Below are positions 23,029 through 50,873 of a DNA stretch of 64,000 bases, in pieces. The stretch covers positions 517,377 to 581,376 of the forward strand of contig CAXXFF010000004.1 of assembly GCA_963676835.2 (NCBI GenBank), read 5' to 3'. The translations under genes were made by a program, and so were the position numbers. This DNA is from Marispirochaeta sp. Lineage in GTDB: Bacteria; Spirochaetota; Spirochaetia; JC444; Marispirochaetaceae. The notes under the pieces are model-generated. The model was not told where the DNA came from. It saw only the letters and a list, made by a program, of their open reading frames with translations, and did no database searches. Numbering within the stretch: the first letter of the stretch is position 1; each line of letters opens with the position of its first letter.

Positions 23029-23029
23029 A

Positions 23030-23157: not shown

Positions 23158-23194
23158 CTATGTTGCAGGATGCTGAGAGGTGACCAGAATATGA

Positions 23195-23455: not shown

Positions 23456-23461
23456 AAATTC

Positions 23462-34442: not shown

Positions 34443-35348
34443 TTATTTAACAGCTTCCATAAAGAGAGCTACATCGTTCCAGAGCCAGTCAAAATAGTTT
34501 CGGTTACGCATAACCGGAGCCAGGCTTTGGCCTGGTGACAATGTATGAACAGTTTTAAATCCGGCCTGCCGCAGAAACCTACCCAGCTTTGCATAATTCC
34601 ACCAGTTGATATGATTCTGACGGTAGATTTTCTGCTTTTCCAGACTGCACCGGGATGTACACAAATCCATGGCGGTCTCAAATGGATTTGCCCTCATGAT
34701 ATTGTCAAGTTCTGTATCTTCAATGGGATTTTCTATACCATCCGCATGAATTGTTGACGCGTTTGCAGCGAAATGTACAAGAAAAACCTGCTGAAGGGAC
34801 GCCTTATTTAAGGGAATACGGTACTTCATGAGCTGCATCATTTCTGGACGGCTGAAATTTTCGATCCAGCTGAAATAATGGTAATCCTGCTTCTTGTAGG
34901 CAATATAATCGAGTTCCAGATTGGGTATAATAAACCTTACAACGCCGTTCTTTTTTAGACAGCGGTAAATATCCCGGAGTAAATACTCTGCGTGAGTATC
35001 AGTTATATGCTCCATAGCAAAGCGGGAGTGAAAAAGCTCGGCGGAAGCATCGTCTATGGGAAGAGGTTTACAGTCGAAAGGGTCATAGGCAATATCACAT
35101 TCGGGATTGTACATGGGAGTTAGATCGTATTTCCTGTCTACATCTATATTTGTCCACAGAGGGTGGAAAAAGCTCCCTCCAAACCCAAAATGACCGCCGG
35201 CAGATATATTATAAAAGGCTTTTCTTTTTATACTGTCTTCCGGGTAGTTTAGTCTGTAGAGTTGAGAATCATCTTCCAACCGTCTTGTTTTAGTAAGCTG
35301 GTAACCGGATTTTCCCAGTATTTTTTGAATTATCTGTTTCATTGACAT
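34443..35348 (-). CDS. Class I SAM-dependent methyltransferase-like protein
   Basis: WTNIDVD, LPIDDASAELFHSRFAMEHI, IYRCLKKNGVVRFIIP; motif I is atypical. Confidence 0.65.
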   Translation of the reverse strand: MSMKQIIQKILGKSGYQLTKTRRLEDDSQLYRLNYPEDSIKRKAFYNISAGGHFGFGGSFFHPLWTNIDVDRKYDLTPMYNPECDIAYDPFDCKPLPIDDASAELFHSRFAMEHITDTHAEYLLRDIYRCLKKNGVVRFIIPNLELDYIAYKKQDYHYFSWIENFSRPEMMQLMKYRIPLNKASLQQVFLVHFAANASTIHADGIENPIEDTELDNIMRANPFETAMDLCTSRCSLEKQKIYRQNHINWWNYAKLGRFLRQAGFKTVHTLSPGQSLAPVMRNRNYFDWLWNDVALFMEAVK

Positions 35349-35400
35349 ACCTTATCTTCACTTCCTTGATACAATTTATCTTTACCGTTATACAATAACC

Positions 35401-36330
35401 ATGAATTATAGGACTTTTTTAAGCAGATGCTTTGTACTTATATTCTTATACATTTCATCCGGGTGCGGGAATCCCGATATCAAATACATTCAGGATAATA
35501 ATATGCTGAAGGCAATCCATTACACTTCCGACACTATTGAGAATCTCAATTATACGGTTTATGAACCTGTTAATAATGAACCAGCCGGACTTCTGATCTT
35601 TTTTCATGGCGCCGGCGGGAGTGCTGATTCGTGGCAGAGCTTCGGAAGGAACATTGAAAATTACTGGAAGAAAGAAGGAATGGCTCCTCCTCTGGTCGTC
35701 TCAATTTCCCGGGGGCCAGTCTGGTTTCTCACAGGAGAAACATCTCTCATTTCCCAAGATTTAATCAATGTGGTGAGGGAAGAAATTCTTCTTCCGCTGG
35801 AAACACAATATAAACTGCCGGAAAAGCGTACATTGATCGGATTATCCATGGGAGGTTTCAACGCACTTTCCTTTTATGTCTCAGATCCAGATTATTTCAA
35901 CCGGATACTACTGATCAGTCCGGCTCTGATAACAGTTTCACCATTCAGTTCAAGTAAAGAAGTTGACGATTATGCAGCACGAACACAAGCATATTCTTTC
36001 AAGCAGAAGATAAAGACTTTACTGGCAGGGAAAAAAATCTATACCGGGAATATCAACACTATTATTTCCAACCTCAAAACCGCAGCAGCCACAGAGGAGG
36101 ACTGGGAATTAATTAATCCCTTACAAAAACTTGAAAAAATGAAGGAAATCCCCGGTAAATTTCTAATAGCCTCGGCAAAAAAGGATATCTATGGGTTTCA
36201 GGAAGGAATAGAAGAGCTCCGCCTGCTTTTAATAAAAGAAAATGCTTTAACAGATTTTATCGAGGTAGACGACACCAGGCATTTGCTTACCCTACCGGAA
36301 GAAGCGTTATCCTTTATTGCCTTTCCGTAA
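35401..36330 (+). CDS. Alpha/beta hydrolase (esterase), probably a lipoprotein
   Basis: FFHGAGG, GLSMGG nucleophile elbow, C-terminal His; ISSG-C lipobox-like; 3' end overlaps the PKS stop. Confidence 0.8.
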   Translation: MNYRTFLSRCFVLIFLYISSGCGNPDIKYIQDNNMLKAIHYTSDTIENLNYTVYEPVNNEPAGLLIFFHGAGGSADSWQSFGRNIENYWKKEGMAPPLVVSISRGPVWFLTGETSLISQDLINVVREEILLPLETQYKLPEKRTLIGLSMGGFNALSFYVSDPDYFNRILLISPALITVSPFSSSKEVDDYAARTQAYSFKQKIKTLLAGKKIYTGNINTIISNLKTAAATEEDWELINPLQKLEKMKEIPGKFLIASAKKDIYGFQEGIEELRLLLIKENALTDFIEVDDTRHLLTLPEEALSFIAFP

Positions 36331-39300
36331 TAGCTGCAATATCATTTCTGAGAATCTTTGAAATCATTTCACCGCTTATTTTGCCATGTTCACTGAGCCG
36401 GGAGATATGATTTCCCGGTACTACATGTACATCCATTGAAGGAAATATTTTCGTATCCCAACCCAGATTTTTTCTGCGACGATCCCACTCCTGGTTGACA
36501 AGCAGGGTAACTAATCCGGTATATCTCCGGGGACGATAGCTCAGTAATTTTCTCTGATAGAACAGACTGCTTTCCAGCACCTGACGGATCTGTTTCTGGC
36601 GGGGTGTGACTGCGAATAAAACATTGCCCAGTTCAGAAAATGAATGCACTATTCCTTTAATACAGTTACAGCTGCTCTGTTTGCTGAAATTACGGAGCAG
36701 GAGTTTTTTTATCCACTGTTTATAATAAAAAAGTTCTTCACTGATAAATTTTCCAAGCCCCGGACGGGGAGTATCCATAAGAACAAGATGGGCCACGGTT
36801 TCCCCGGCTGCAGACAACTGCCTGGCAATTTCTATAGCAATCATCCCGCCTACACACTCCCCCCCAATATAGTAAGGGCCTTCAGGCTGCACTTTTTTCA
36901 ACTCTTCAATATAGACTGCTGCCATAGTCTCGACATTTCGGTGCATGGTTTCGCCAAAACGAATGCCCCGGGGGCGAAAACCATAAATAGGCTGATCCTT
37001 CCCGAGAAAGCCAATAAGACTGGAAAAATAGCGAAGAAAATCCTCCTCATAGCTGGAGGTCATTTTTTCACGGTCGTAATAGCGGTTTTCATGGGCTCCT
37101 GCAACAAGAAATAATCTGGGAAGACTGCCTTTCGCCTGCACCGGAAACAGTAGGGGAAATTCATCCGCTTCGCTGCAACTGTCGGAGCATCCCTGAGAAA
37201 CAACATCCAGCATATCCTGAAAGACAGGATTAAGCAGAATATCATTCAGTCTGATCGTTATGCCGAACTCCGCGTTGATTTTTTTCACCAGCTCGGCTGA
37301 CATCAACGAATCACCGCCCAGATCAAAAAAATTGGCATCTGCAGAGATATTCTCATAGCCAAGAACCTGCTGCCAGACTTTACTTAGACGTGGTAAAACA
37401 TCTTTATTTTTATTCCCAGTATCACCTGTATCTTGTGTCAGGCTTATCTGCGAGTCCGGGTTATGAGCTGAGTTATTGATTTTAAGGTCCGGCAATATCC
37501 AGTGTTCCGTCTTTTTAAATGCGTAGGTGGGAAGATTAAGAGTTTTACCGTTCTTAATACTGTTAATTCCACCAAGATCAACACATCCACCGGCGCGCCA
37601 TATATTTCCCAATCCCTTAAGAAAGAAAAACTCTTCATTGATATCGCTTCCAGAGCCGGGCAGGGTCTGAACAAGGATTTTTTCTTTTCGGGTATCGATT
37701 GTTCTTACCAGCCGGGAAAGAACTGCTCCAGGACCAACCTCCACGTAGAGACTCTCCGACTCTATTTTAATTGATAAAATACCCTGATAAAAAAGGACAG
37801 TACTCCTTAGATGGTTCATCCAGTACTCGGGAGTATACACATACCCTTTATTCAGTTTTTCTCCACTGAGGTTACTGATAACATCCAGCTGCAAAGGGTT
37901 GAAAGAAATAGTCTGCAAAATCTCTTCAAATCCCGGCAGAATCTGATCCATCAGGCGACTGTGAAATCCGGACCGTGAAGACAGCATCTTACAGCTAATA
38001 TTTTTCTCAGTAAAAAATCCTTTGCAGTTCTCAATGGCTTCGGGCTCACCTGAAAGGACAACCTGCCCGGGACCGTTTATACCGGCAACATCCACATAAT
38101 CCGGGATTAGACCGGCAATATTTTCATATTCAGCAAAAACTGCAAGAAGCCTGCCCTCATCCGCCTGAGACATTATTTCGCCTCTACGGGAAACAAGGCG
38201 AACACCATCCTCCAGACTAAAAGCACCAGCAAGGCAGGCCGCTGTAAACTCGCCCAGGCTGTGACCTGTCATGGCATCACATTGAACACCATAAGAGAAG
38301 AGAGTTTTTGCTATTGCCCATTCAACCGAAAAAAGCAGAGGCTGAATATAGGCTGTATCCGCAAGCTTTGTCTCTGCATCCGGATCTGTTCCAAAGATTA
38401 TACTCCCGGAGTTCCAGCTGTTGACAGCATCAACAAGCTCGAGGGCAGTATCAAGAAAACCGGCAAAAACTTCATTGTTCTCATAAAGGGACCGACACAT
38501 ACCTGCATACTGTGTCCCCTGTCCGGGAAATAGAAAAATCGTATAGGGCTTTACCGTCGCTTTTCTGCTTGAACAGACAGCTTCAGACTGACCATCCTTT
38601 TCATGAAAAGGGACTGTCAGAAATCCCCGGAATGGCAATGTACTTCTACGGGTCATCATAGTCCAGACTGCATTAACCCGGTCTGTTCTACTTAAGGTAT
38701 TCAGGTAATCGGCTATTCTGTCCGCATACATTTTCAGAGATTCAGAGCTTTTCGCTGAAACAGGGCATAACATAAACCTGGCAGCGGTTGAATCTGCGCC
38801 GGTTGCCCCTCGACCAGGAGGCTCCCAGGATTCCAGGACAACATGAGCATTGGTCCCACCAATACCAAAAGAACTGACACCGGCGATCCTTCGTCCGTTC
38901 ACCGATTCCCACCTCCGGAGCTCAGTATTTACCTTAAAAGGAGTCTGCTCAATTTTCATTTCGGGGTTTGGCCGGGTGAAGTTAATGGAAGGCGGGAGTT
39001 TGCGATTTTTCAAAGATAATGCTGTTTTGATCAGCCCTATTATACCAGCTGCAGCATCAAGATGACCGATATTGGATTTTACGGAACCGATATAGCAGGG
39101 ATGCTCTCTGTTCTCATTGTTCCCAAAACTCTTTGTCAGCCCGGCAATTTCAATGGGATCACCCAGAATAGTCCCTGTTCCATGGGCTTCTACATATGAA
39201 ACCTCATCAGGGGAAATTCCTGCAAGACCAAGAGCATCATTGATAACCTCTGCCTGGCCATCGACACTGGGTGCGGTATATCCGATTTTCGCAGCGCCGT

Positions 39301-41917
39301 CATTATTAATTGCAGCTCCGCGGATCAGGGCGATAATCTGGTCGCCATTTTTTACCGCATCTTTAAGTCTCTTCAGTACAACCATACCAATTCCGGAACC
39401 GAAAACTGTACCTGAAGCATCCGCATCGAAGGGCCTGCAGAGTCCATCGGAGCTTAGAATAGTACCTTCACTGTATAGATAGCCTTCTTTAACCGGAACA
39501 TTCAGGCTTATTCCGCCACATAAAGCGACATCACATTGGTAGTTCAGAAGGCTCTGATATCCCATCTGGACAGCCACCAGAGAGGTAGAACACGCTGTCT
39601 GCACAGTAATAGCAGGACCTTTCAAGTCCAGTTTATACGCCACCCTGGAGGCCAGGAAATCATTACTGTTTCCCACCATGGTCTGAAAATCTGATACATC
39701 GTTTTTTTCAGAGCTGAAAAGAATATTTTTCAGCTGGTATTTATTCTGCCCGCAACCGGCAAAAACTGCAACTCTGCCTGATTCTCTCCCCGGGATGATA
39801 CCGGCGGACTCAAGTGCTGCCCATGAATGCTCCAGCATCAGCCGCTGCTGAGGATCCATAAAACGGGCCTCCCTTGGGGAGTATCCGAAAAACTCATTAT
39901 CAAAGAAGGGAGTAGACGGCAGCGGCCCCGATCGTCTTATATAACGGGTATCAGAAACCAGAGCAGGATCAAGCCCCTGCTCCACCAGTTCTTCAATGGT
40001 ATATTCCGACAACCCACTTCGTCCGGCAGCAAGAAGATCCCAGAACTCTTCACTGTTTTCTGCTCCGGGAACAGCGCAGGAAATTCCTGTTATAGCAAGG
40101 GTAAATTCATCATAGTCTGATTCGTTATTATTCATATTATTTTCTATGCTGCTAACAGGATTGTCTCCGAACTCAACATCAACAGCTCTGGTTAGAGCAG
40201 AAATTGTAGGATTCTGAAAAAACACAAGCGGCTCTACTGCAAACCCGAGAAAATCCGAAAGATGTTTTAACAGCCGAATTACCTGTATGGACTGCCCTCC
40301 GGCATCAAAGAAATTCACCGTATCATCAAAATCTTTATGACCCAGCTCACGTTCCCAGAGACTACGGATCATCGCATGTAAGGACAAGGGCGTTTCCACG
40401 CTTACTTGATCATATTCAATTTCCGGAAACTGCTTTCTGTCTACCTTACGGTTTGGCGTATACGGAAAATCATCGAGCCGTTTAAAAACCGCCGGAATCA
40501 TGTATGAAGGCAGCTTCTGAGAAACTGCATTATGGAGAACATCTGGCTGGAGATCCTTTTCTCCCCGGTAAAATGCGGCCAGGATAGTATCACCTTCGGG
40601 GGATTTTCTCGGAAGAACCACTGTTTCCTCCACACCCTCCACTGCCGACAGAACTGCTTCGATTTCTCCAGCATCAATTCGCAGGCCCCGCATTTTTATC
40701 TGAGTATCCCGGCGCCCCAGAAAAGAAATTGTACCATCCTCAGTTTCCCTTACATAATCACCGGTATTGTACATACCATCCCGAAAGACTTCAGCAGTCA
40801 GATCCGGATGGTGCCAGTACCCTTCCGCAAGCCCATCTCCGCTTATCCACAGAAGACCCTCTTCTCCGGTAATTACCGGCTGCTGATCTTCATCTAAAAT
40901 ATGCAAACCGGTATTATTAATTGGCATACCTATAGGAGGGGCCACCTGTAAACCCGGCTCCAGCTTGCACAGCGACGACCAGATTGTCGTTTCCGTCGGT
41001 CCATACATATTCCATACATCACATCCGGTTTTTGTAAGCTTTGCCGCAAGATCAGCAGACAAAGCTTCTCCTCCACAGAGGATCTTCAGTCCTTCTTTCC
41101 CGGAAAAACCGGCTTCCAGAAGAAGCTGCCAGACAGAAGGAGTTGTCTGAACAAGTGAAACAGCGGTGTCCTGTACAAGAGCAACGAGCGCGGCAGGGTT
41201 ATACACGGCATCTTCTCTGACAAGCCTTATACCACCGCCGCAGATAAGCGGAAGAAACAACTCAAGCCCTGCAATATCAAAGGATATAGTGGTTAAGCCA
41301 AGGACCTGATCTTCAGTAGAGATTCCCGGGTCATCCTTCATGGAAAGAAGAAAATTAAGAAAAGCCCGGTGAGAAACATAAACTCCCTTGGGATTTCCAG
41401 TTGAACCGGATGTATAGAGAATATATGCATAAGCAGAAGACTTTACAGCAGGAAGAGAGTCAGGAGACTCAACAGGTTCAGCATTGAGAGCAGAGCAGAA
41501 AACTACACCTTCAAGGTCTCTGAAGGCTGCAGGCCTTTCAGAATCATCACAAAAAATAAAATCAATACCGGAGTCCGAGGCCATAAAAGCAAGTCGGGCA
41601 GAAGGGAAAGATGGATCCAGAGGAAGATATCCTTTACCCGCTTTCTGTATGCCTATCAGGGCAGCAAGCATATACGGCGATCGCTGCATGCTCACACCAA
41701 CAAAAGGTGCATCCTCGCTGCAGTTTTCAGTTACCATTCGGGCAAACCAGTTGGAGAGCTGGTCCAGTCCGGCATAGCTAAGAGTTTCCTCTTCGAAAAT
41801 CAAAGCATCTGCTTCGGGTTGTTTTTCTACCTGATTTCCAAACAGCTCCAGCCAGGTACCGAATCCGACTTCCGGTCCATTATTAATCCATGATGATACT
41901 TTTTTTTGCAGTGACAC
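36314..41917 (-). CDS. Hybrid NRPS-PKS: A(Gly)-T-KS-AT-ACP-TE
   Basis: A: YTSGSTGNPKG, YGPTE, GDY, NRKVDR. T: FFDAGGQS. KS: DPQQR, QTACSTS, HGTGT, GHLDAAAG. AT: FPGQG, GHSLGE, GFHS. ACP: FFDLGGDS. TE: GECVGG and GNH. Confidence 0.93.
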   Translation of the reverse strand: MSLQKKVSSWINNGPEVGFGTWLELFGNQVEKQPEADALIFEEETLSYAGLDQLSNWFARMVTENCSEDAPFVGVSMQRSPYMLAALIGIQKAGKGYLPLDPSFPSARLAFMASDSGIDFIFCDDSERPAAFRDLEGVVFCSALNAEPVESPDSLPAVKSSAYAYILYTSGSTGNPKGVYVSHRAFLNFLLSMKDDPGISTEDQVLGLTTISFDIAGLELFLPLICGGGIRLVREDAVYNPAALVALVQDTAVSLVQTTPSVWQLLLEAGFSGKEGLKILCGGEALSADLAAKLTKTGCDVWNMYGPTETTIWSSLCKLEPGLQVAPPIGMPINNTGLHILDEDQQPVITGEEGLLWISGDGLAEGYWHHPDLTAEVFRDGMYNTGDYVRETEDGTISFLGRRDTQIKMRGLRIDAGEIEAVLSAVEGVEETVVLPRKSPEGDTILAAFYRGEKDLQPDVLHNAVSQKLPSYMIPAVFKRLDDFPYTPNRKVDRKQFPEIEYDQVSVETPLSLHAMIRSLWERELGHKDFDDTVNFFDAGGQSIQVIRLLKHLSDFLGFAVEPLVFFQNPTISALTRAVDVEFGDNPVSSIENNMNNNESDYDEFTLAITGISCAVPGAENSEEFWDLLAAGRSGLSEYTIEELVEQGLDPALVSDTRYIRRSGPLPSTPFFDNEFFGYSPREARFMDPQQRLMLEHSWAALESAGIIPGRESGRVAVFAGCGQNKYQLKNILFSSEKNDVSDFQTMVGNSNDFLASRVAYKLDLKGPAITVQTACSTSLVAVQMGYQSLLNYQCDVALCGGISLNVPVKEGYLYSEGTILSSDGLCRPFDADASGTVFGSGIGMVVLKRLKDAVKNGDQIIALIRGAAINNDGAAKIGYTAPSVDGQAEVINDALGLAGISPDEVSYVEAHGTGTILGDPIEIAGLTKSFGNNENREHPCYIGSVKSNIGHLDAAAGIIGLIKTALSLKNRKLPPSINFTRPNPEMKIEQTPFKVNTELRRWESVNGRRIAGVSSFGIGGTNAHVVLESWEPPGRGATGADSTAARFMLCPVSAKSSESLKMYADRIADYLNTLSRTDRVNAVWTMMTRRSTLPFRGFLTVPFHEKDGQSEAVCSSRKATVKPYTIFLFPGQGTQYAGMCRSLYENNEVFAGFLDTALELVDAVNSWNSGSIIFGTDPDAETKLADTAYIQPLLFSVEWAIAKTLFSYGVQCDAMTGHSLGEFTAACLAGAFSLEDGVRLVSRRGEIMSQADEGRLLAVFAEYENIAGLIPDYVDVAGINGPGQVVLSGEPEAIENCKGFFTEKNISCKMLSSRSGFHSRLMDQILPGFEEILQTISFNPLQLDVISNLSGEKLNKGYVYTPEYWMNHLRSTVLFYQGILSIKIESESLYVEVGPGAVLSRLVRTIDTRKEKILVQTLPGSGSDINEEFFFLKGLGNIWRAGGCVDLGGINSIKNGKTLNLPTYAFKKTEHWILPDLKINNSAHNPDSQISLTQDTGDTGNKNKDVLPRLSKVWQQVLGYENISADANFFDLGGDSLMSAELVKKINAEFGITIRLNDILLNPVFQDMLDVVSQGCSDSCSEADEFPLLFPVQAKGSLPRLFLVAGAHENRYYDREKMTSSYEEDFLRYFSSLIGFLGKDQPIYGFRPRGIRFGETMHRNVETMAAVYIEELKKVQPEGPYYIGGECVGGMIAIEIARQLSAAGETVAHLVLMDTPRPGLGKFISEELFYYKQWIKKLLLRNFSKQSSCNCIKGIVHSFSELGNVLFAVTPRQKQIRQVLESSLFYQRKLLSYRPRRYTGLVTLLVNQEWDRRRKNLGWDTKIFPSMDVHVVPGNHISRLSEHGKISGEMISKILRNDIAAITERQ

Positions 41918-41919
41918 GA

Positions 41920-42921
41920 TTATTCTGTAAACCTGAGTTCCTTTTTAATATGTTCAAACTGCTCTCTGGACTGGTCTTCGAGCTTTTCAACAGCTTCTTC
42001 TCTGGTCAGTTGATTTTTCAGTATAAGATGACTCAATTCAAGCTCATACGGGCTATAGCCATATTTTTGTGTGTGAATAAAATTATTGAAGGTATTGAGT
42101 CGACAGTTGGATGAACATCCGTCCACATCCCCCGGACGCTCCCAGCCCAGGGGAGAAATCTTCCTGACAATTTCAGCCTCGGTAATATCTTCCAGGCAGA
42201 GAAGATTGATAACCCAGGGATAGTCTGACACAAGACTCTGCAGGCGGGGCGAAATCCGCAGGTATTCGTTAACCTGACTGCCTGCCGCCGCTTCAAGCAT
42301 CGAATGGCTTCTTTTTCTGCTTTCTTCAAAAAAAGGATAATTGTTCTGGTAAAGCACACTGTTTGCGGGAATCTGTCCCAGAGTGAATCCTGCGAGAATA
42401 TAGGGAATATCTTTTTCTATTGCTGTTTTAAGAGCAATATTATTCACTATGGAAATACAGGTATTACAACCGGAGGAGATTCGTCTCAGACTGGATCGGG
42501 CATACACCTGTTCCCGTGCGCTGGTAACTATCATTTTATTGAACACCGGCTTCGACGGCCGGAAGGTAAAGTGGTCTACTCCCAGTGCATCAACAACCTT
42601 GTTTATATTCTCGAATGCCTTTGTCGAAATATAGCCGTTATCCAAAGTAAAGGAGAGAACTTTAAGATTATACTTCTCCACTGCCAGCTTGAGGGTGTAG
42701 GTGGAATCCTTTCCCCCACTGTATGCAACAACTGCATCATAGGCATGACGTCCACGCTCTTTTTCAAACATACCCTCGACAGTGTGTGCCGCTTCCGATA
42801 TTACCCGGGCTTCTGTCTTCTGAACAGTTTCGTCCCTGCAGAAATTACAGACGCCATGAGCATCAAACTCTATTCCAGGAAAAGACGACGAAAGTACACA
42901 CCTGGTACAACGTTCGGGCAT
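41920..42921 (-). CDS. Cys-rich PP-loop (adenine nucleotide alpha-hydrolase) enzyme; candidate thioamide synthetase or amidotransferase
   Basis: N-terminal CTRC...CNFC, YSGGKDS PP-loop, central CNTC, late DGCSSNC; overlaps the ACP stop. Confidence 0.75.
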   Translation of the reverse strand: MPERCTRCVLSSSFPGIEFDAHGVCNFCRDETVQKTEARVISEAAHTVEGMFEKERGRHAYDAVVAYSGGKDSTYTLKLAVEKYNLKVLSFTLDNGYISTKAFENINKVVDALGVDHFTFRPSKPVFNKMIVTSAREQVYARSSLRRISSGCNTCISIVNNIALKTAIEKDIPYILAGFTLGQIPANSVLYQNNYPFFEESRKRSHSMLEAAAGSQVNEYLRISPRLQSLVSDYPWVINLLCLEDITEAEIVRKISPLGWERPGDVDGCSSNCRLNTFNNFIHTQKYGYSPYELELSHLILKNQLTREEAVEKLEDQSREQFEHIKKELRFTE

Positions 42922-43160: not shown

Positions 43161-43162
43161 GA

Positions 43163-45139
43163 TTACGCCTCTGTTACGCTAATTTTCTGTTTTCTTCGGT
43201 CAATAGTCCGGGATTCCGGATTGCGGATCCGGGACTCCAGAATCTGGTTGGATAAAATGAAAGAGATAAGCATATTATCCCTGTATCCTGCAGAGGTAAG
43301 CCCCCGACGTTCTATTTTAAACAGCAGCCTTTCAACCATTTTGCGGTCATACAGACCATACTCGTCTATTATATCGCTGTTGAGAAAGCTTTTCACTAGG
43401 TCTCCCCTTTTTCCTTGAGGAAAAAAAGAAGCAAGATCCGGAGCCATATATGGTCGCTTAGGCCGGTTCAGTATTGGTTCGGGTAGTTCTTTTTTAAAAG
43501 CCTGCTTCAGCAGATCCTTCGCGGAATATCCGTTCAGCTTCGTTTCGTCCGGCAGGGTCAGAACCCACTCAATAAGAGTATGATCAAGGAAAGGAAACCG
43601 CCCTTCCACACTGTGAGCCATGGCCATACGGTCACCCTGGGCAGAAAGCAGGTAGCCTGAAAGAAGGGTTTTCATTTCCCAATACTGGTTCCGTTTGAGT
43701 ATTGACCACTCTTTAACATGCACGGGAGTGAGAGCTTCGATTTTATCTGCGAGAGTGTCAAAATTGAACTCCAGCCCCCAGTCACGGTTGAACATCTTCG
43801 TGAGCACCTGATTGTTGCTCACCCTCATGGCAAGGCCGGCAAGGGGGCCGGAAAAACGGTCAAGGAATCCTTCGTAATACATCTTCAGAAAGCCAAGCTG
43901 CTCCGCATCTCTATAATGGTCCAGATGGGGATAGAGCTGTCCGAGGATACTCATAACAGCTGTATCTGACAACCCGTTTTTCCAGGAGCTCAGCAGTTTG
44001 AGTTCCTTGTAGGTATCATAACCAAACAGGATTTCGTCTGCCGCCTCGCCGGTAAGAACTACCTTTATATCCTGTTCCCGGACCTTTTTCGACAGCATGT
44101 AAAGCGGCACCGGAGCTGTCCGGAATATTGGACGCTCAAAGTGTCCTGCGGCATCTACAAAATTCTCCGCGATATCTGTTCCATCAACGGTTACGGAATA
44201 GTGATCAGAATCTATGGAATTCACCATCATCTGCTGAAATTCCGATTCATCAAATCCGGTATCGGTAAAGGCAACGGAAAAACTTTTAAACCGGTGATTA
44301 TTAATCTTTTTTGCAAGGTAGGAAGTAACCGAAGAGTCGAGACCACCACTTAAATAGCATCCGACGGGGACATCACTTCTGAGGCGCAGTTTAACTGATT
44401 CTTCCAGCTTCTGCCGAAAAAGAGCAACCTGATCCGGAAGGCACAGGCTTGTTTCCGGCCCGGATTCCTCTCCTAGGGTATAATAAGCTTCCGGTCCGGA
44501 TGTTCCGTTATGGGTAAAGTACTGGTAATGCCCGCCTTCCAGGGAAAAAATACCCTTGAAAACCGTATTGCCGCCAAGGGTATTCCAGAGCAGACCATGT
44601 TCCAGAAGATTCTCCGGCGACCACTGCCTCCGTCCTTCACCAATATGATCAAAAACCCTCAGTTCCGATGAAAAGTAAACTGCACCGGATGAAGCAGGAT
44701 AATAGTAGAGAGGACGTATGCCATACCGATCCCGGGCGGCCAGAAGTTTCTGCTGTTTTTTATCCCAGAAGAGAAGGGCAAACTGGCCGTTGAAGCGCCT
44801 GAAAGCATCCGGGCCCCACCACTCTATTGCCCGCTGAACCACCTCAGTATCCGATGTTGTTTCAAAACGGGCGCCAAGGTTCTGGAGTTCTGCTTTCAGT
44901 TCAATATAGTTATACACTTCTCCGTTATAGACCAGTACAGACCTGTCGGAGATCATAGGCTGATGACCACCGGCAAGATCAATGATACTGAGGCGGGAAT
45001 GCCCAAGACCTATACCGGGAGCACCATAACTGCCATACTCATCGGGACCCCTGTGGTCGATGTATGGGATAAGTGATTCTGCTAGTGATTTCAATTCTCC
45101 GGCTGGTGCCGGTTTCAGTATTCCTACTATTCCGCACAT
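43163..45139 (-). CDS. asnB: Asparagine synthase (glutamine-hydrolysing)-like amidotransferase
   Basis: N-terminal MCGIVG Ntn Cys, HRGPD, RLSIID, NGEVYN, LSGGLDSS, TGEAADE, RFPFLD. Confidence 0.92.
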   Translation of the reverse strand: MCGIVGILKPAPAGELKSLAESLIPYIDHRGPDEYGSYGAPGIGLGHSRLSIIDLAGGHQPMISDRSVLVYNGEVYNYIELKAELQNLGARFETTSDTEVVQRAIEWWGPDAFRRFNGQFALLFWDKKQQKLLAARDRYGIRPLYYYPASSGAVYFSSELRVFDHIGEGRRQWSPENLLEHGLLWNTLGGNTVFKGIFSLEGGHYQYFTHNGTSGPEAYYTLGEESGPETSLCLPDQVALFRQKLEESVKLRLRSDVPVGCYLSGGLDSSVTSYLAKKINNHRFKSFSVAFTDTGFDESEFQQMMVNSIDSDHYSVTVDGTDIAENFVDAAGHFERPIFRTAPVPLYMLSKKVREQDIKVVLTGEAADEILFGYDTYKELKLLSSWKNGLSDTAVMSILGQLYPHLDHYRDAEQLGFLKMYYEGFLDRFSGPLAGLAMRVSNNQVLTKMFNRDWGLEFNFDTLADKIEALTPVHVKEWSILKRNQYWEMKTLLSGYLLSAQGDRMAMAHSVEGRFPFLDHTLIEWVLTLPDETKLNGYSAKDLLKQAFKKELPEPILNRPKRPYMAPDLASFFPQGKRGDLVKSFLNSDIIDEYGLYDRKMVERLLFKIERRGLTSAGYRDNMLISFILSNQILESRIRNPESRTIDRRKQKISVTEA

Positions 45140-45186
45140 ATCATTCTTCCTGAAACTGTTTCAATAAACCTTTATGCACTTGTCTT

Positions 45187-48100
45187 TTATCGCGTGCGTC
45201 TGTTTCTTCCAGCCATACGCTTCATCTGCTCACGCTGAACGGATGCTCTTCCTGCTTCAGATGATTCATCTTTCCCGCCGATAAGCGCAGCCTGAGCTGC
45301 TACTGTAGGATACCGGAAAAGATCCATCAACGATACAGATTTCCCCGTAAGACCTTGCAATTTTTTCTGGAGTACCGGAAGCTGAAGGGAATGACCGCCG
45401 AGGTCGAAAAAGCTTACGCCGCTGTCAACCTCCGGAACATTGAGCAGCTCGCACCAGATCTTTTCAATCCCGGAAAATATATCAGTCATTTTTTCTGAAG
45501 AATGCGAATCCAAGGCCTGCTCTGCTTCCGTGAAATTCCCCGCAGCCAGAGCCTTACGATCAATTTTACCACTGGGCAGCATGGGAAAAGTATCAATAAA
45601 ATGGAACTTATCGGGAATCATATATCCCGGAAGCCTGCGTATCAGTTCAGTTTTAACCGTGGAGGGGTTCTCTCCCTCTTTTACTGCAAGATAGGCATGG
45701 AGAGTCATATCCCCCGAGCTTTTTTCCGGGATCAGTACAACCGCAATTGATACAGAATCGATAGTCTCAAGGTTCCGTTCAATTTCTGCAAGCTCAATTC
45801 TTATACCGTTAATCTTTACCTGGGTATCCATTCGGCCGGAGTACCAGAAAACACCCTCATTATCGTAATAGCCGATGTCACCGGTACAATAGACTGTTTC
45901 CTGTCCCCATCCCCAATCGCCCCGGATAAAAGCTTTCTCTGTTAGTTCCGGATTGTTTATATACCCCGGTGAAACATTTACACCGGCTATGGCAATTTCC
46001 CCCCGTACCCAGGAAGAGCATAGCCTGCGGTATTTATCGAGAACCAGAATCCGTGTATTTGCGATCGGCCGGCCGATGGGGATCTGTTCTCTTTCCAGAT
46101 CTGCTTCTGTACATTCCCAGGCTGTGACATCTATAGATGCCTCCGTAGGGCCGTAGAGATTATGAAGCCTGACTCCTCCGGTTTTTTCCCCAGTCTCCCG
46201 CACCAGAGAAACATCCAAAGCCTCTCCCGAACAGATAATACCCTTGAGATCCGGAAAGTGAAAATTCCCTGCGTTATCAAGAAACTTGCGCAGAAGTGAG
46301 GGCACAAAATGAATATAGCTGATTTTCTGCTCTCTTACGGTATCCGCAAGGTAGACATCATCAAGATGTCGTCCCTGTTCCGGGATAAACAGTGACGCCC
46401 CGAAGAGAAATGGCCAGAATATTTCCCACATAGAGACATCGAAAGTATAGGGCACCTTGTGAATAAGGGTATCACCCGGTGCAAGAGGAAAGGTTTCCTG
46501 CATCCACCAGAGCCTGTTTACCATTCCCTGCCCCGGAATCGCCACTCCCTTTGGATTTCCGGTGCTTCCGGAGGTGTAGAGGACTGCTATTGTCTCATGA
46601 TCGGAAATTTCACTCTGCTCCTGGTTTTCAGGCACAAAAGCTGTCAGTATATCCGGAGTGAATAATCCTGAAGTATTCTGAAACCGCTGCTGAATACGGG
46701 GTTCGATTATTCCGAATACGGCTCCTGAATTGGAAAAAATATACTCTACCCTGGAAACCGGCCAGTTAGGATCTACCGGAACATATGCATTACCGGAAAC
46801 TACAATGGCGTGAATAAGCGTCAGTCTCTCTAAGCTGTTATCCAGAGCCACAAGGATTTTCCTGCCTCTGCCGGCTTTTTCCTTTAACAATTGGCTCAGG
46901 TTGCGAACATTACGCTCCAGATCCTTATAGGTTAATGCCTGCTCTTCGTCGGTGAGAGCTATCTTGCTCCCATACCGGCTGTAGGACGATAAAAGATGCT
47001 CCCTGAACGGGATCTCCAGGGGGTATTTTCTGGTCCGTTCATTATTCTGATATTTTAAAAGCGACAGCTGATCCTGCATAATCAGCGGAAGATCTTTCAC
47101 TACTGTTTCAGGTTTGGTTCCAGATACTGCAACAATATTCTGCCATATCCGGGACCACCCCTCGGCCTGGTCCTGAGTAAAAGCAGAGGTGTTGAACTCT
47201 ATCCGTGCAGATAGTCCGTCCGCATTGTCCCAATACGTAAGGAACAGATCCATCTGTGCGCCTTCGGGGCGAATGTTTATTGGTGTGACGCTGCATCCGT
47301 CAAGGTTAAGCATAAAGGGCTCTTCACGGGTAAAGCCGGCCTGCAGAAAATAAGGGATCCGTGGATCACGGGACCCCTTATAGAGTCCGGCAATTTCCAG
47401 GAAGGGCAGCTCCTGATTCCGGTGCAGCAGCAGCATATCCTTTCGAATCTGATTGTACAGATGCAGAAAGCTCTCTTCCGGATTAATGGTGACTTTTAAA
47501 GGAAGAATGTTAACAAAGGGCCCATACATATTTTCCCGTTCAGGGTTCCTGCGGTTGGGAAATGGTACCCCGATAAAGAACTCCAGCTGACCGCTTAAAG
47601 CATTAAGCAGGAGAGCATATGAGGTCAGCAGATGAAGAAAGGGTTGAAGTTCTCGTTCTGATCCCTGCTGTAAAGCAGTATTAGTATTTTCATTTACCTT
47701 AAAAAAGAAGGTGTTCCCTTCCCCAGTAAAATAATCTCTGGAAGATCTGGATGGGGGAAGTACCAACGAATCCGGCGGGTTTTCAAGATACTTTCTCCAG
47801 AAACCTTCCTGCCTTTTTACCTTGTCATCCTGTTCTCCCAGACCTGCTTCAGTGTATGGAATCAGTTGTATATCCAACTTTTTTCCGTTGTATTCAGAGG
47901 ATATCAGACGTGAAAGCAGCTCTTTTGAATGAAGATCTATGCCGGTATGGTGCTGCACTGCACAAAAATAAAAACATGACTCGGTTAATTTAAAAAGACA
48001 GGCTTCAATTCTTTCAGGTTCATCGGCATCAAGCGGCAAATCCGCCACTTGCCGGATACCCGCAAGAGCTTCTTCTTCGGTGAAACATTGGTCTGTATAT

Positions 48101-48279
48101 AAGTTAAGAGCAATTCTTATATCGGTTATTCTTTTGCCCGCTTTTTGCAGAGAATCACAAAACTTACGTACATCAAGCTTACCCTCTATTCTTACAGCAA
48201 GAATAATATTGTAGGCCCGTGATTGTGGGTAAAATATTGAAGCAGTTTTAAAATGGTTCTGGATTCCGTTACTCAGCAT
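45187..48279 (-). CDS. Single-module NRPS: C-A(Ser)-T
   Basis: HHTGID condensation motif, YTSGSTGNPKG, FDVSMWE, NLYGPTE, TGD, SGKIDR, FFDLGGHS; basic C-terminal docking-like tail. Confidence 0.92.
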   Translation of the reverse strand: MLSNGIQNHFKTASIFYPQSRAYNIILAVRIEGKLDVRKFCDSLQKAGKRITDIRIALNLYTDQCFTEEEALAGIRQVADLPLDADEPERIEACLFKLTESCFYFCAVQHHTGIDLHSKELLSRLISSEYNGKKLDIQLIPYTEAGLGEQDDKVKRQEGFWRKYLENPPDSLVLPPSRSSRDYFTGEGNTFFFKVNENTNTALQQGSERELQPFLHLLTSYALLLNALSGQLEFFIGVPFPNRRNPERENMYGPFVNILPLKVTINPEESFLHLYNQIRKDMLLLHRNQELPFLEIAGLYKGSRDPRIPYFLQAGFTREEPFMLNLDGCSVTPINIRPEGAQMDLFLTYWDNADGLSARIEFNTSAFTQDQAEGWSRIWQNIVAVSGTKPETVVKDLPLIMQDQLSLLKYQNNERTRKYPLEIPFREHLLSSYSRYGSKIALTDEEQALTYKDLERNVRNLSQLLKEKAGRGRKILVALDNSLERLTLIHAIVVSGNAYVPVDPNWPVSRVEYIFSNSGAVFGIIEPRIQQRFQNTSGLFTPDILTAFVPENQEQSEISDHETIAVLYTSGSTGNPKGVAIPGQGMVNRLWWMQETFPLAPGDTLIHKVPYTFDVSMWEIFWPFLFGASLFIPEQGRHLDDVYLADTVREQKISYIHFVPSLLRKFLDNAGNFHFPDLKGIICSGEALDVSLVRETGEKTGGVRLHNLYGPTEASIDVTAWECTEADLEREQIPIGRPIANTRILVLDKYRRLCSSWVRGEIAIAGVNVSPGYINNPELTEKAFIRGDWGWGQETVYCTGDIGYYDNEGVFWYSGRMDTQVKINGIRIELAEIERNLETIDSVSIAVVLIPEKSSGDMTLHAYLAVKEGENPSTVKTELIRRLPGYMIPDKFHFIDTFPMLPSGKIDRKALAAGNFTEAEQALDSHSSEKMTDIFSGIEKIWCELLNVPEVDSGVSFFDLGGHSLQLPVLQKKLQGLTGKSVSLMDLFRYPTVAAQAALIGGKDESSEAGRASVQREQMKRMAGRNRRTR

Positions 48280-48339
48280 GTTTTTCCAATGGCATATTGA
48301 TTTCTTAATACAATACAGTATCTAATACTAAACTATAGC

Positions 48340-49035
48340 ATGGTTAATATCTTTTTGATTAACACAAGTGGAGGCATGCCGGATTCAGTTTATGAAACCT
48401 GGCTTTCCTGTCTTCCCCCGGAAAAACAGGAAAAAGTAAGGAAAAAGATTCGAATACCGGACCGCATTACGACTCTGGCCACTCATTACATGCTCAGATT
48501 TGTACTGGAGCATTTTTTGCATATCCCCGGGGAGAAACAAAAATATTCAACAGGGAAATATGGCAAGCCTTTTCTGTTGAATTACCCTGATGTCTATTTC
48601 AGTCTTTCCCATTCGTCAGGATGGGGGGTTGTTGCTGTTTCTGATTCAGAAGTTGGAGTAGATATAGAAGAGTATCGTAACTTTAAGTTAAACGATTTTA
48701 AAAATATACTCAATGAAAACGAAATGCGGTATATTTTAGATACAAACAGCAGTTATGGTACTTCTGCGGACAGGTTCTTTCAGATATGGACAATGAAAGA
48801 GGCTTATCTAAAAGCTATGGGCACAGGATTCTTAAATGCCCAAAATAACAATAGTCTGGTGCAAATGGTAAACAATGACTACATTATAAAAAACCAGATA
48901 AACAATTTCTCTGTAAATAATATTCTAAAGAATGCTTCTCTATTTTTAAGCGTCTGCTCAAGTGGTACAAAGCAGATATTCACATCAACTCCATTAGAAA
49001 TGCAGAAGGTATTTACCAGTCAGGTTACACAGTAG
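48340..49035 (+). CDS. Sfp-type 4'-phosphopantetheinyl transferase
   Basis: GKYGKP, FSLSHS, VGVDIE, WTMKEAYLKAMGTG; divergent from the NRPS. Confidence 0.92.
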   Translation: MVNIFLINTSGGMPDSVYETWLSCLPPEKQEKVRKKIRIPDRITTLATHYMLRFVLEHFLHIPGEKQKYSTGKYGKPFLLNYPDVYFSLSHSSGWGVVAVSDSEVGVDIEEYRNFKLNDFKNILNENEMRYILDTNSSYGTSADRFFQIWTMKEAYLKAMGTGFLNAQNNNSLVQMVNNDYIIKNQINNFSVNNILKNASLFLSVCSSGTKQIFTSTPLEMQKVFTSQVTQ

Positions 49036-50032
49036 ATACTTTTTTATTACCGACAATAAAAGGCATCCATCTATTTACAATATGTACCACTGGTATCAAT
49101 ATCAGTATCTGAAGGAGTGAAGCAACTGCTGCATAGAGGAATGTATCCATGTGGAAAACGCTAATTTTATTGAGCAAAGGTTTAACAAAGGTATAAGCTC
49201 TCATATGGAAAACGTATATAAGCAGCGAGTTTGCCGCAAGGTAAAAAGATATTTTATTAGTCGGTATTAAAGTAGATACTATAAGGTAAAAAAAGATGCC
49301 TGCAAATGCTGAAAGGTAAAAATAGGGAATAATGTGAAAAATACCCTGATATACATCTATTCTGCCGTTATTGATTAGAAAGAAGAATACATTGACAAAC
49401 AAGAATATGCCAGCGCCGGGAACCTTTTTATAAATCCCCAGCCTTTCGACTTCCTTGAATTGGGGTTGAAAATAAAAACCTGAAAGAAAGAATACAATCA
49501 TTGAGGGGACAATATTTAAACTCCAGGGCAGATTAAATTCGTGCGTAATGGTCCAAATATGAGACGCAACAAGCAGTAATGATAGCATTAAGACCATCAG
49601 CCATGGTCTAAGCTTTAAAATGCCAAATGCCCCTATGTGTACAAGGTACAAACAGGGTAGAAACCACATTTGTACGCCCCATCCCATATACTTAAGCTGC
49701 CCCTGGGCATAAAAGATTCCGACAAGTCCTTTTGCATAGGACGATTCTTTCAGTACTCCCGGTTCGACTAGGGATAAAACTGCCCAGAAAAGATATAACA
49801 AAATAGACAGCAGCAGGTATGGAATAATAAGCCGTTTAAACTTCGACACGGCCAGGGATTTAAAAGTTGTATGTTGTCTATTTTTAAACAGAAACCCGGA
49901 GATGAAGAAAAAAAGAGGCATATGAAAGGAATAGATATAGTAATATAGGAAGTGGCGGTGGTGCCCAAGTATTACAAACACGAGCCCGAATGCCTTAAGT
50001 GTGTCTATTGCACTATACCGCTCAGATTTCAT
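49025..50032 (-). CDS. Acyltransferase_3 family membrane O-acyltransferase
   Basis: IDTLKAFGLVFVILGH, YSFHMPLFFFISG, KFKRLIIPY, MWFLPCLY; about 10 TM helices. Confidence 0.9.
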   Translation of the reverse strand: MKSERYSAIDTLKAFGLVFVILGHHRHFLYYYIYSFHMPLFFFISGFLFKNRQHTTFKSLAVSKFKRLIIPYLLLSILLYLFWAVLSLVEPGVLKESSYAKGLVGIFYAQGQLKYMGWGVQMWFLPCLYLVHIGAFGILKLRPWLMVLMLSLLLVASHIWTITHEFNLPWSLNIVPSMIVFFLSGFYFQPQFKEVERLGIYKKVPGAGIFLFVNVFFFLINNGRIDVYQGIFHIIPYFYLSAFAGIFFYLIVSTLIPTNKISFYLAANSLLIYVFHMRAYTFVKPLLNKISVFHMDTFLYAAVASLLQILILIPVVHIVNRWMPFIVGNKKVSTV

Positions 50033-50042
50033 ATAGAGTATT

Positions 50043-50873
50043 TTATTTTTCGAGACCTGCCAGGAACTTTATAAGTTCTGAGGCAACAAGCTTCTGTCCT
50101 TCCTCATTAAGATGCCCGCCATCCCAGGTATATAAGGGGTAAAGGGCAGGCACCATCTTTCCGTTTGCTTCCGCATAGTATTCTTTACCGTCTGGTGTAG
50201 TAGATTCAATTTCAGCCAGATCGAATAATCGTCCTGTACCGGATTTTGAATCTCTTAGTAAAGTATTAAAGATATTACGGGGAATATTTTCAACGGTACC
50301 AGTGTCGACTTTCTTTAAGCGGCCGAGAATATTTTTTGCCCAGTTTTTTATGCCTTTATCCATTGGAGAGGTTAGCGGCATGGTAACATAGACAAATGTA
50401 GTTTCAGGATACTGCTTCTCTAATGTTTCCATAGTCGACACATATTCTTTATAAATCTCTTCCGGAGAATTATCGCGGTATGTGTCTACATAGCAGAATT
50501 TCATTAAGGCAATATCCGGTAGGTTTTCTTGATTATTTGAGAAGAAGGTTTGAAAATCGGATATCTTAGTTGATGGGTATTCGTTTTCTCCGATGTTTTG
50601 ATGGATAATCCCTAACTCTAAAACATTCTCTTGGTTGGGATTATATTCTTCAATTTTAATACTTTTATCTAAACCATTCGATACATAATATATGCCGGAT
50701 AAAATATTTCGCCCCACTGATTGATGTCCGAAAAAAATTGCTTTTTTACCAAGATTGTCCAAAGCGGAAACAATATACTCTCTATTTTTCATATCACCAC
50801 CTACACAGGATACAGTTATAACAGACATTAAAATTACCAATAAAGCCAAAATATATTTAGCAAGTTTTTTCAT
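50043..50873 (-). CDS. Lipoprotein with SGNH-like hydrolase/acyltransferase fold
   Basis: TVS-C lipobox; FFGHQSVG, MKFCYVD, LFDLAEIES, DGGHLNEEG (DxxH). Confidence 0.7.
   Translation of the reverse strand: MKKLAKYILALLVILMSVITVSCVGGDMKNREYIVSALDNLGKKAIFFGHQSVGRNILSGIYYVSNGLDKSIKIEEYNPNQENVLELGIIHQNIGENEYPSTKISDFQTFFSNNQENLPDIALMKFCYVDTYRDNSPEEIYKEYVSTMETLEKQYPETTFVYVTMPLTSPMDKGIKNWAKNILGRLKKVDTGTVENIPRNIFNTLLRDSKSGTGRLFDLAEIESTTPDGKEYYAEANGKMVPALYPLYTWDGGHLNEEGQKLVASELIKFLAGLEK

Follow-up and report, generated by a model that had tools for sequence, protein, structure and literature searches.

We analysed a 64,000-nucleotide stretch of the Marispirochaeta sp. genome (GenBank assembly GCA_963676835.2, contig CAXXFF010000004.1, positions 517,377 to 581,376; hereafter the window), in which a nonribosomal peptide synthetase-polyketide synthase (NRPS-PKS) assembly line lies inside a polysaccharide locus. 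An original prediction, made from the sequence alone, had described the assembly line, its accessory genes and the glycan genes around them. Every gene that it named was found at 34443-50873 with catalytic motifs intact, using the list of open reading frames (ORFs) and Pfam and NCBIfam scans, and its domain and gene calls were all confirmed by these scans and a listing of small ORFs. Judged by sequence comparison with congeneric genomes, the cassette spans 34443-50032 and occupies a variable slot between a conserved SGNH-like gene and wzz; the hexapeptide-repeat acyltransferase gene on the far side of the SGNH-like gene is probably also part of it (Table 1).

The assembly line and its surroundings

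All cassette ORFs are intact, and every catalytic motif that we checked is present. The NRPS module, of the order condensation-adenylation-thiolation (C-A-T), carries HHTGID in its C domain (best match among PDB sequences at E 8e-22, which does not tell the subtype apart), the core motifs FDVS...NLYGPTE and the A10 lysine motif SGKIDR in its A domain, and GGHS in its T domain. The second synthase joins an A-T unit to a ketosynthase (KS), acyltransferase (AT), acyl carrier protein (ACP) and thioesterase (TE); its KS has TACSTS, EAHGTGT and SNIGH, completing the Cys-His-His set, its AT has GHSLG and its PKS carrier GGDS. The phosphopantetheine serine is kept at all three carrier sites and in the free ACP, whose I-D-S motif is invariant in 27 homologues and which scores 32.5 bits against DltC models with a cutoff of 68. 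Motif anchors and alignments gave the adenylation codes DVWHISLIDK for the C-A-T protein and DILQLGMIWK for the PKS-fused A domain, which we take to be a serine-type and a glycine-type code, respectively, and these fit the Gly/Ser/malonyl building blocks foreseen for the line.

The AsnB protein begins with MCGI, so that the glutaminase nucleophile Cys is intact, in keeping with the earlier idea of an amidated unit; its score lies below the cutoff of the XrtA-associated subfamily (377.9 versus 816.9 bits). The TE departs from the usual GxSxG: its nucleophile is a Cys (GGECVGG), aligned to GGWCFGG in PDB chain 4ZXH (AB3403 of Acinetobacter), and Pfam Thioesterase still matches at 75.7 bits. On sequence grounds we assign it to a Cys variant of the type I thioesterase fold.

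On the minus strand, the locus runs from several glycosyltransferases (GTs) through the candidate Wzy, Wzx, GT4, hexapeptide, SGNH-like and acyltransferase family 3 (AT3) genes, across the assembly line, to the methyltransferase-like, Wzz and Wza genes, and further GTs lie beyond Wzx on the same side as GT4. Wzx, Wzz-like and Wza-like members of a Wzx/Wzy-type set are present, and the Wzy candidate is called solely from its 10 hydrophobic segments. Because the right end of the window (64000) is the end of contig C4, the polysaccharide locus is truncated on its GT side; no initiating sugar transferase was seen in the window, whose locus is cut at the contig end. The two flanking genes that had been placed on the plus strand, encoding the phosphopantetheinyl transferase (PPTase) and the esterase, do lie there. 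The stop codon of the free ACP gene overlaps the start of the PP-loop gene, the methyltransferase-like gene shares its strand with wzz and precedes it by 59 nt, and the AT3 and SGNH-like genes are adjacent, 10 nt apart. Lipoprotein-type N termini occur in both the SGNH-like protein (signal ending in Cys; C-terminal DGGH) and the PF00756 esterase (ending ...ISSGC; nucleophile elbow GLSMGG). Between 26 and 64 kb there was no Pfam match to a transporter other than Wzx and Wza or to a regulator, and, as the prediction had stated, no efflux pump, regulator or resistance gene adjoins the line. Promoter-like sites between 33000 and 52000 numbered 33 against 34.5 expected, and terminator-like sites 29 against 18.1; none was informatively placed, and they were not used for operon calls.

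Table 1. Genes of the cassette and of the adjoining polysaccharide locus (positions refer to the whole 64-kb window; genes in the text are on the minus strand unless given otherwise)
Feature	Position	Strand	Evidence and remarks
Wza-like outer-membrane polysaccharide export protein	31943-33157	-	Pfam SLBB 43.8 bits, Poly_export 32.9 bits; conserved frame
Wzz/PCP-like chain-length protein	33166-34383	-	Pfam GNVR 30.8 bits; 2 hydrophobic segments; conserved frame
Class I S-adenosylmethionine (SAM) methyltransferase-like protein	34443-35348	-	Sub-cutoff Pfam Methyltransf_23/11; Atlas clusters 0.97-0.98 = Methyltransf_11
Alpha/beta-hydrolase, PF00756 'putative esterase'	35401-36330	+	Pfam Esterase 37.2 bits; convergent with PKS gene
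Hybrid NRPS-PKS, A-T-KS-AT-ACP-TE, 1867 aa	36314-41917	-	Pfam domains and motifs
PP-loop ATPase, N-acetyl sugar amidotransferase (NASAT)/WbuX kind	41920-42921	-	TIGR03573 146.5 bits; SGGKDS
Free acyl carrier protein, 79 aa	42921-43160	-	PP-binding 27.7 bits, cutoff 20.8
Glutamine-dependent AsnB-type amidotransferase	43163-45139	-	TIGR01536 441 bits, cutoff 267.1; GATase_7 and Asn_synthase
NRPS module C-A-T	45187-48279	-	Pfam domains
Sfp-type PPTase	48340-49035	+	Pfam ACPS 48.8 bits (cutoff 25), AASDHPPT_N; divergent from NRPS gene
Membrane acyltransferase family 3 (AT3)	49025-50032	-	Pfam Acyl_transf_3 89.9 bits, cutoff 31
SGNH/GDSL-like lipoprotein	50043-50873	-	Pfam Lipase_GDSL 26.7 bits, cutoff 23.6; conserved frame
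Hexapeptide-repeat acyltransferase, CysE/EpsC/WcaB-like	50878-51474	-	NF041874 112 bits (cutoff 150), Pfam Hexapep; probably part of the cassette
GT4 glycosyltransferase	51492-52625	-	Pfam Glycos_transf_1 143 bits; conserved frame
Wzx-type MOP flippase	52622-54130	-	Pfam Polysacc_synt_3 273.7 bits
Candidate Wzy polymerase, 436 aa	57045-58355	-	No Pfam/NCBIfam match; 10 hydrophobic segments

A cassette family and its PP-loop enzyme

Homologues of the PP-loop enzyme numbered 929 at E<=1e-10, many of them 55-60% identical, and their labels include Bacteroidales, Marinilabiliaceae, Desulfoluna and Polyangiales. An alignment scan of metagenomes yielded 66 loci, and the related set used here comprises 35 loci of at least 5 kb (L004 and 34 from metagenomes). 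A scan of the genome collection gave one close relative at 70% identity, L004, from a metagenome-assembled genome labelled Spirochaetales. It keeps the gene order of the window (C-A-T, AsnB, ACP, PP-loop, A-T-KS-AT-ACP-TE), its last protein being 46% identical to the counterpart in the window. Across the 35 loci, AsnB occurs in 29, NRPS or PKS genes in 31, and a methyltransferase-like homologue (40-49% identical) lies beside the PP-loop gene in 10; in most, the free ACP gene sits between the AsnB and PP-loop genes, and an alpha/beta-hydrolase gene often follows the PP-loop gene. In L046 (10012-11877) the PP-loop enzyme is fused to an alpha/beta-hydrolase in a single 621-aa ORF, which argues that the two would act together in the cytoplasm in that lineage. 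One further lineage encodes, after the PPTase, a fused biotin carboxylase/biotin carboxyl carrier protein/carboxyltransferase of up to 1764 aa (L063:15701-20992; L052:9391-13566), suggesting a dedicated malonyl-CoA supply that fits the malonate demand of the line.

The commonest architecture consists of one or two C-A-T modules plus KS-AT-ACP-TE, and among 46 distinct A domains of the family 21 have presumably serine-type and 11 presumably glycine-type codes. Because architecture and A codes are conserved, the conserved product of the family appears to be assembled from a starter unit, serine, in many cases glycine, and malonate. Compared at the sequence level, the cassette is a member of a widespread, uncharacterised family with a hallmark trio of AsnB, free ACP and NASAT-like PP-loop enzyme, accompanied by a serine-type C-A-T module, a malonate-extending KS-AT-ACP-TE, a methyltransferase-like protein and a PPTase. 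Searches of open-access papers and preprints for the gene set, or for NRPS/PKS genes in Wzx loci, yielded no description of the cassette.

An A-T unit fused to KS without the second C domain of other lineages is common to the window, L004 and L117. This reduced module, and the restriction of the cassette to one of six genomes of the genus (none of the five congeners, 94-98% complete, yielded the PP-loop gene), could be taken to mean that the cassette is decaying or silent and adjoins glycan genes by chance. We regard this as very improbable: the ORFs and all checked catalytic motifs are intact, and retention of the C-less architecture in L004, at 46% identity, and in L117 argues for selection, against decay.

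The PP-loop enzyme matches TIGR03573 (N-acetyl sugar amidotransferase) over residues 4-327 of 333, its 146.5 bits falling under the curated cutoff of 203.2. All 30 aligned homologues keep SGGKDS (S68-G-G-K-D-S73) unchanged, as do all 14 sequences that represent both this subfamily and a sister subfamily described below. Across the same 30 homologues C5, C8, G23, C25 and C28 are invariant, as are C152, C155, C269 and C273; C152, C155 and C273 are kept in the sister subfamily too, and C269 is not. The section of PMC10607449 dealing with a Legionella enzyme gives CXXCXn[GN]XCXXC and SGGXDS as the marks of NASATs, and the family of the window enzyme carries both. The family profile matched 8WEX in the PDB at E 1.3e-12, and a predicted model (mean pLDDT 88.9) returned 8WEX at Foldseek ranks 1-2 (E 1.6e-14, TM 0.66-0.69), ahead of TtuA, NcsA, LarE and carbapenam synthetase (TM 0.29-0.39; TtuA ~0.35). 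As modelled, the enzyme has a NASAT fold, not a TtuA fold. NASATs turn an amide into an amidine, making an acetamidino group out of the N-acetyl group of a sugar. The coupling of the window enzyme to ACP genes points instead to a substrate that is probably carrier-bound; predicted complexes of the PP-loop and ACP families scored 0.13 and 0.27 against a mark of 0.32 and count neither way.

These comparisons bear on the type of modification, which had been proposed to be amidation or thioamidation. Since the fold is NASAT-like and not TtuA-like, an amidine is likelier than a thioamide, and a sulfur-containing product is possible given the three conserved extra cysteines. Closthioamide CtaC is reportedly a precedent for thioamide formation; we kept a CtaC-type reaction as a minor option only, in view of the same fold.

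The slot beside wzz and the polysaccharide context

In the congeners G001 and G003, the genes for GT4, an SGNH-like protein (45-47% identical to that of the window), Wzz (72-74%) and Wza (~70%) are contiguous, with no synthase. The GT4 beside the SGNH-like gene in G003 is 45% identical to the window GT4, and across G001, G002 and G003 Wza is 68-71% and Wzz 65-74% identical. Relative to G001 and G003, the window has gained 34443-50032, from the AT3 to the methyltransferase-like gene, between the SGNH-like gene and wzz, and also the hexapeptide gene between GT4 and the SGNH-like gene. AT3 is absent from the G001/G003 frame. The proposal that AT3 and the SGNH-like protein form a unit is weakened, as the two are not co-inherited in the genus: in G001 and G003 the SGNH-like gene keeps its place between GT4 and wzz, and neither AT3 nor NRPS/PKS genes are present. 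In scans for repeats and tRNA genes, the cassette proved to be bracketed by neither direct nor inverted repeats, and no tRNA appeared; there is no insertion scar.

The nearest congener, G002 (92% DNA identity at the fumarase gene), carries a different and larger PKS-NRPS set of ~33 kb in the slot between wzz and wzx (L027-L029, G002:C1:1794000-1849999). This set has its own PPTase, two AT3 genes and a PF00756 esterase that is 26% identical to that of the window and occupies an analogous place. Its synthases are two KS-AT-ACP-C-A-T-TE proteins, a C-T protein and a methyltransferase-T protein; two of the A domains have a glycine-type code, and the TEs are of the same Cys type, 39-42% identical to the window TE. 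Genes for GtrA, YdjC, GT2 and GT87 are interleaved with the synthase genes on the same strand, and another AT3, an MBOAT and an SGNH protein are encoded further along. The GtrA/YdjC/GT layout recalls lipid-carrier sugar modification pathways such as Arn. The window AT3 is 31% identical to a G002 AT3 and the window Wzx 56% identical to that of G002; homologues of the candidate Wzy, 37-42% identical, lie in the G002 and G003 loci.

The association with glycan loci, predicted from one window, recurs well beyond it, in L004, G090, metagenome lineages and a sister module. Within 401 genomes of the phylum, the close subfamily occurs in G090 and G219 besides the window, and three of the four close-subfamily genome loci (window, G041, G090 and G219) adjoin polysaccharide genes; in G090 its immediate neighbour is an initiating sugar transferase gene. 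The L004 cassette forms the continuation of an exopolysaccharide operon on one strand. Upstream on that strand lie genes for a LuxR/VpsT-like regulator, a PilZ protein, an initiating sugar transferase (Bac_transf), Wzx and six GTs, with a weak Wzy_C match in the same block and Wza- and Wzz-like genes nearby on the opposite strand. Downstream are genes for an AT3, a second hexapeptide protein, a NAD-synthase-like protein, an SGNH-like protein (38% identical to that of the window) and another AsnB, and the hexapeptide gene within the L004 synthase operon is 44% identical to that of the window. Overall, SGNH-like genes 33-42% identical to that of the window occur in L004, L121, L124 and L126.

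For the metagenomes, we took loci of at least 8 kb that had one or more annotated non-core ORFs and sorted them by eye into 16 lineages according to gene order, leaving out the flankless loci L043, L071 and L078 and shorter loci. Clear polysaccharide genes lie within 10 kb of the cassette in six of the 16: L042 (Wza and Wzc), L044 (Wza beyond an insertion sequence, IS), L060/62 (two AT3 genes, Wzx and a sulfotransferase), L067 (two AT3 genes and an alginate lyase), L068/69/87 (GT1, GT2, hexapeptide and AT3) and L072 (DegT, exosortase, GNAT and a Wzc-like protein). An AT3 gene is inside or beside the cassette in L004, L060/62, L067 and L068/69/87, and AT3 genes placed between cassette genes (L060/62, L068/69/87) occur only in lineages with polysaccharide genes.

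The sister PP-loop subfamily, 33-38% identical to the window enzyme, is present in 13 further genomes of the phylum (L120-L129). Its module consists of AsnB, ACP, PP-loop enzyme, a free-standing adenylating enzyme of ~520 aa and a NAD-synthase-like gene, joined in three loci by a homologue of the window SGNH-like protein (33-42% identical). Sugar-nucleotide, GT, Wza, Wzy_C or hexapeptide genes lie within 14-20 kb in eight of its nine annotated loci, and L128 has none. At the start of a second contig of the genome that holds the window (G000 contig C2:1-7300), a sister-type AsnB (45% identical) and a sister-type adenylating enzyme (44%) lie together with a NAD-synthase-like ORF, an ACP and an initiating sugar transferase, with no PP-loop gene found alongside this set. 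Continuity of this contig start with the window was rejected: the window breaks off within a GT2 ORF, and C2 begins inside the NAD-synthase-like ORF. Taken over all gene neighbourhoods, the tie between cassette family and surface-polysaccharide loci is real but not obligatory, and strongest in the phylum of the window.

Three features lie elsewhere in the window. A dispersed repeat of ~150 nt (31703-31855), between wza and an fn3 gene, has 20 copies at 70-83% identity in the same genome and dozens in congeners, and no family for it was found in Rfam. The adjacent ORFs 29074-30078 (334 aa) and 30099-31676 (525 aa, fn3) are 70% and 59% identical to a single 823-aa ORF of G003, so the gene is split or frameshifted in the window. 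A HipA-family kinase gene (21796-23028) and small ORFs within 21056-23463 have no DNA match in the otherwise syntenic region of G002, and this segment is probably a strain-specific toxin-antitoxin insertion.

Proposed role, alternatives and known systems

Of the explanations considered, we tentatively favour that of an accessory, serotype-variable cassette that may well supply an amidated Ser/Gly/malonate acyl unit to the polysaccharide. In the proposed mechanism, an AT domain would load malonate (or another dicarboxylate) onto the free ACP, and AsnB would amidate the free carboxylate, as GbnA/B/C and glutarimide starter enzymes do. The NASAT-like enzyme would adenylate the ACP-bound amide and convert it further, most likely to an amidine and possibly to a nitrile or thioamide. 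The C domain would condense this starter with seryl-S-T, the glycine/malonate module would add the terminus, and the Cys-thioesterase would off-load the product, which could pass to the polysaccharide or its lipid-linked repeat unit via the Cys-TE, the hexapeptide acyltransferase or AT3. The lipoprotein hydrolases would act outside the cytoplasm, and the cassette would thereby set a serotype-like variant of the polymer.

Several observations weigh against this reading. Ten of the 16 metagenome lineages have no polysaccharide gene near the cassette (L040/41, L046, L049/82, L051/52/63, L055, L064/84, L070, L073, L077 and L091), many with short flanks; IS or transposase genes flank L044, L064, L070 and L084, and several glycan-free loci are IS-flanked. 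In G219 there is no glycan gene on the 23-kb contig that holds the cassette. Core genes have a GC content of 42-48% in a genome of 48.4%, versus 30-38% for the PPTase, AT3, SGNH, hexapeptide, GT and Wzx genes (46.6% for the NRPS gene and 37.2% for the PPTase gene), which implies different histories for the core and the glycan block, and the two plus-strand genes break the minus-strand run. The window AT3 is not orthologous to those of other cassettes (no BLAST match at 1e-5), and the SGNH-like gene, by its position in congeners, belongs to the conserved frame and is not cassette-specific, which weakens the idea of an AT3-SGNH relay. No sugar aminotransferase, deacetylase or NeuD/PglD-type N-acyltransferase was seen in the window, with its locus cut at the contig end. 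The single C domain allows no order of the Ser and Gly steps that avoids an unusual step. A thioesterase terminates the line, the gene set is the one proposed for the methoxypyrrolinone ends of free antibiotics, and the building blocks and core genes are the same in every context, as for a self-contained product.

The caveat that had accompanied the prediction, that of an inserted cassette with a diffusible product, is therefore a live rival. According to it, an ordinary mobile cluster for a free, probably secreted small molecule has landed in a recombination-prone, variable polysaccharide region; the product would likely be an amidated acyl-Ser-Gly chain with a tetramate- or methoxypyrrolinone-like ring, and the neighbourhood would be a hot spot or at most reflect co-regulation with matrix production, with no covalent link. 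We consider this quite possible, though somewhat less likely than delivery to the polymer. The TE, the self-contained core with its own PPTase and methyltransferase-like gene, the constancy of architecture and A codes with or without glycan genes, the glycan-free and IS-flanked lineages, the PP-loop gene found in none of the five congeners, the difference in GC between the core and the glycan block and the separation of the core from its neighbours by plus-strand genes all suit such a cluster, as does the route from amino acid, malonyl unit and O-methyltransferase to methoxypyrrolinone ends set out in part of PMC11085572. Against it stand the missing efflux pump, regulator and resistance gene beside the cassette in the window, and export, flippase or exosortase genes adjoining the window, L004, L042, L044, L060/62 and L072. 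Adjacency is, on a rough estimate, far above chance for a type of locus that makes up ~1% of a genome. AT3 genes are interleaved in the cassette only in glycan contexts, a second, unrelated PKS-NRPS set with interleaved sugar-carrier genes occupies the same slot in G002, and the sister module is nearly always in glycan loci.

Among the findings that the original prediction had named as grounds for abandoning delivery to the polymer are relatives with the locus but without the cluster, and homologous clusters lying mostly outside glycan loci. Both were seen in part, the first as the cassette-free frame of G001 and G003 and the second as the 10 glycan-free lineages among 16. Neither is decisive, because relatives are expected to lack serotype-specific genes, and many of the flanks are short.

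A third explanation makes the product the aglycone or head group of a separate surface glycoconjugate, in which GTs glycosylate the serine hydroxyl as in mycobacterial glycopeptidolipids, with Wzx and the lipoprotein hydrolases handling export and trimming. A serine module conserved in 21 of the 46 A domains is consistent with it, as are GTs directly beside the synthases in L004 and L087 and GT2, GT87 and GtrA genes between the G002 synthases; AT3-type acetyltransferases also occur in glycopeptidolipid loci. We nevertheless think it unlikely: a polymer set of Wzz, Wza, Wzx and candidate Wzy is present, its frame stands without the cassette in G001 and G003, the window has no fatty-acyl loading part for a membrane anchor, and half of the lineages lack a nearby glycosyltransferase.

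A bolder form of delivery to the polymer follows the slot itself, which is empty in G001 and G003, is filled in the window by the Ser/Gly/malonate line, and in G002 by a larger one that comes with sugar-carrier genes. This might be a fixed site by wzz, in polysaccharide loci of this bacterial group, for interchangeable thiotemplate cassettes, each writing its own peptide-polyketide acyl tag, with a NASAT enzyme that moved from sugars to a carrier protein to turn an AsnB-made ACP-amide into an amidine (or nitrile or thioamide) starter, and a Cys-TE serving as the transferase to sugar. We offer it as speculation that is doubtful in this full form.

If the product is polymer-bound, modular peptide-polyketide synthases, best known for antibiotics, would also diversify surface glycans and bring in a new level of variation between serotypes; a new class of substrate would be added for NASAT-type enzymes, Cys-thioesterases and AT3 acyltransferases; and there would be a new reason why many 'orphan' NRPS/PKS clusters give no free metabolite. 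Should the product instead be free, the conserved AsnB/ACP/NASAT-like trio would still mark uncharacterised starter-unit chemistry, in a family with hundreds of members in sediments, peat and host-associated bacteria.

Among known systems, NASATs (WbuX, WbpG and PseA-type; 8WEX) share with the PP-loop enzyme SGGKDS, the tetracysteine with G-x-C-x-x-C, the full-length TIGR03573 match and the best-matching fold. The window enzyme differs in its sub-cutoff score, its ~20% identity to 8WEX and its three to four extra conserved cysteines, and its family is always coupled to ACP and AsnB, and mostly to NRPS/PKS genes, rather than to sugar-nucleotide genes. Starter amidation by an ACP and an AsnB homologue is described for gladiolin (GbnA/B/C) and glutarimides (bioRxiv 10.64898/2026.04.24.720606). 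With gladiolin GbnA/GbnC and glutarimide malonamyl-ACP the window shares a free ACP beside a glutamine-dependent AsnB homologue, heading an assembly line that has a malonate-type AT, a likeness of gene content; unlike them, it lacks a gene for a separate loading AT, has an additional NASAT-like enzyme after the ACP, and continues with a cis-AT NRPS-PKS of only two modules.

Glycans that bear acyl groups built on carrier proteins are reported, in simple form, in PMC3927599 (viosamine island of Pseudomonas syringae) and PMC3441752 (tetronate on perosamine). Like the viosamine island (vioS, vioR, acp, vioB) and the Vibrio cholerae O1 tetronate genes, which make non-standard acyl groups for sugars, the window combines an ACP with condensing or adenylating enzymes in a glycan locus. 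A hexapeptide-repeat acyltransferase is present too, which is however CysE/WcaB-like and not VioB-like. The window differs by its complete NRPS module, its type I PKS module and its TE, and no amino-sugar genes were seen in it. Adenylating enzyme, small carrier, membrane acyltransferase and SGNH-type protein are encoded as in Dlt and AT3-SGNH (OafA/OatA) systems, but the window has no MBOAT (one is present in the G002 locus) and lacks the marks of a Dlt-type relay; in contrast to OafA/OatA, its AT3 and SGNH genes are separate, with different histories, and the SGNH-like gene occurs without AT3 in G001 and G003. With a TE at the end of the line, there is no need for the carrier to reach the membrane enzyme.

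An amino acid plus malonyl module with a stand-alone methyltransferase has been proposed for methoxypyrrolinone ends such as that of althiomycin, in the part of PMC11085572 on these termini. The window resembles this type in its C-A-T followed by KS-AT-ACP-TE, its stand-alone methyltransferase-like gene and its Gly/Ser extended by one malonate, and differs in a starter from the AsnB/ACP/PP-loop trio, a Cys TE, the polysaccharide-locus setting and a putative role for the methyltransferase. A terminus of the reutericyclin type, an N-acyl tetramic acid, is a further point of comparison. Finally, ObiF1 and SulM are said to use Cys-nucleophile thioesterases to make a beta-lactone or a beta-lactam. 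With these and with AB3403 (4ZXH), whose product is unknown, the window TE shares GxCxG in place of GxSxG; it differs in following a PKS ACP, and within this genus the Cys-TE is common to both assembly lines found at the same slot.

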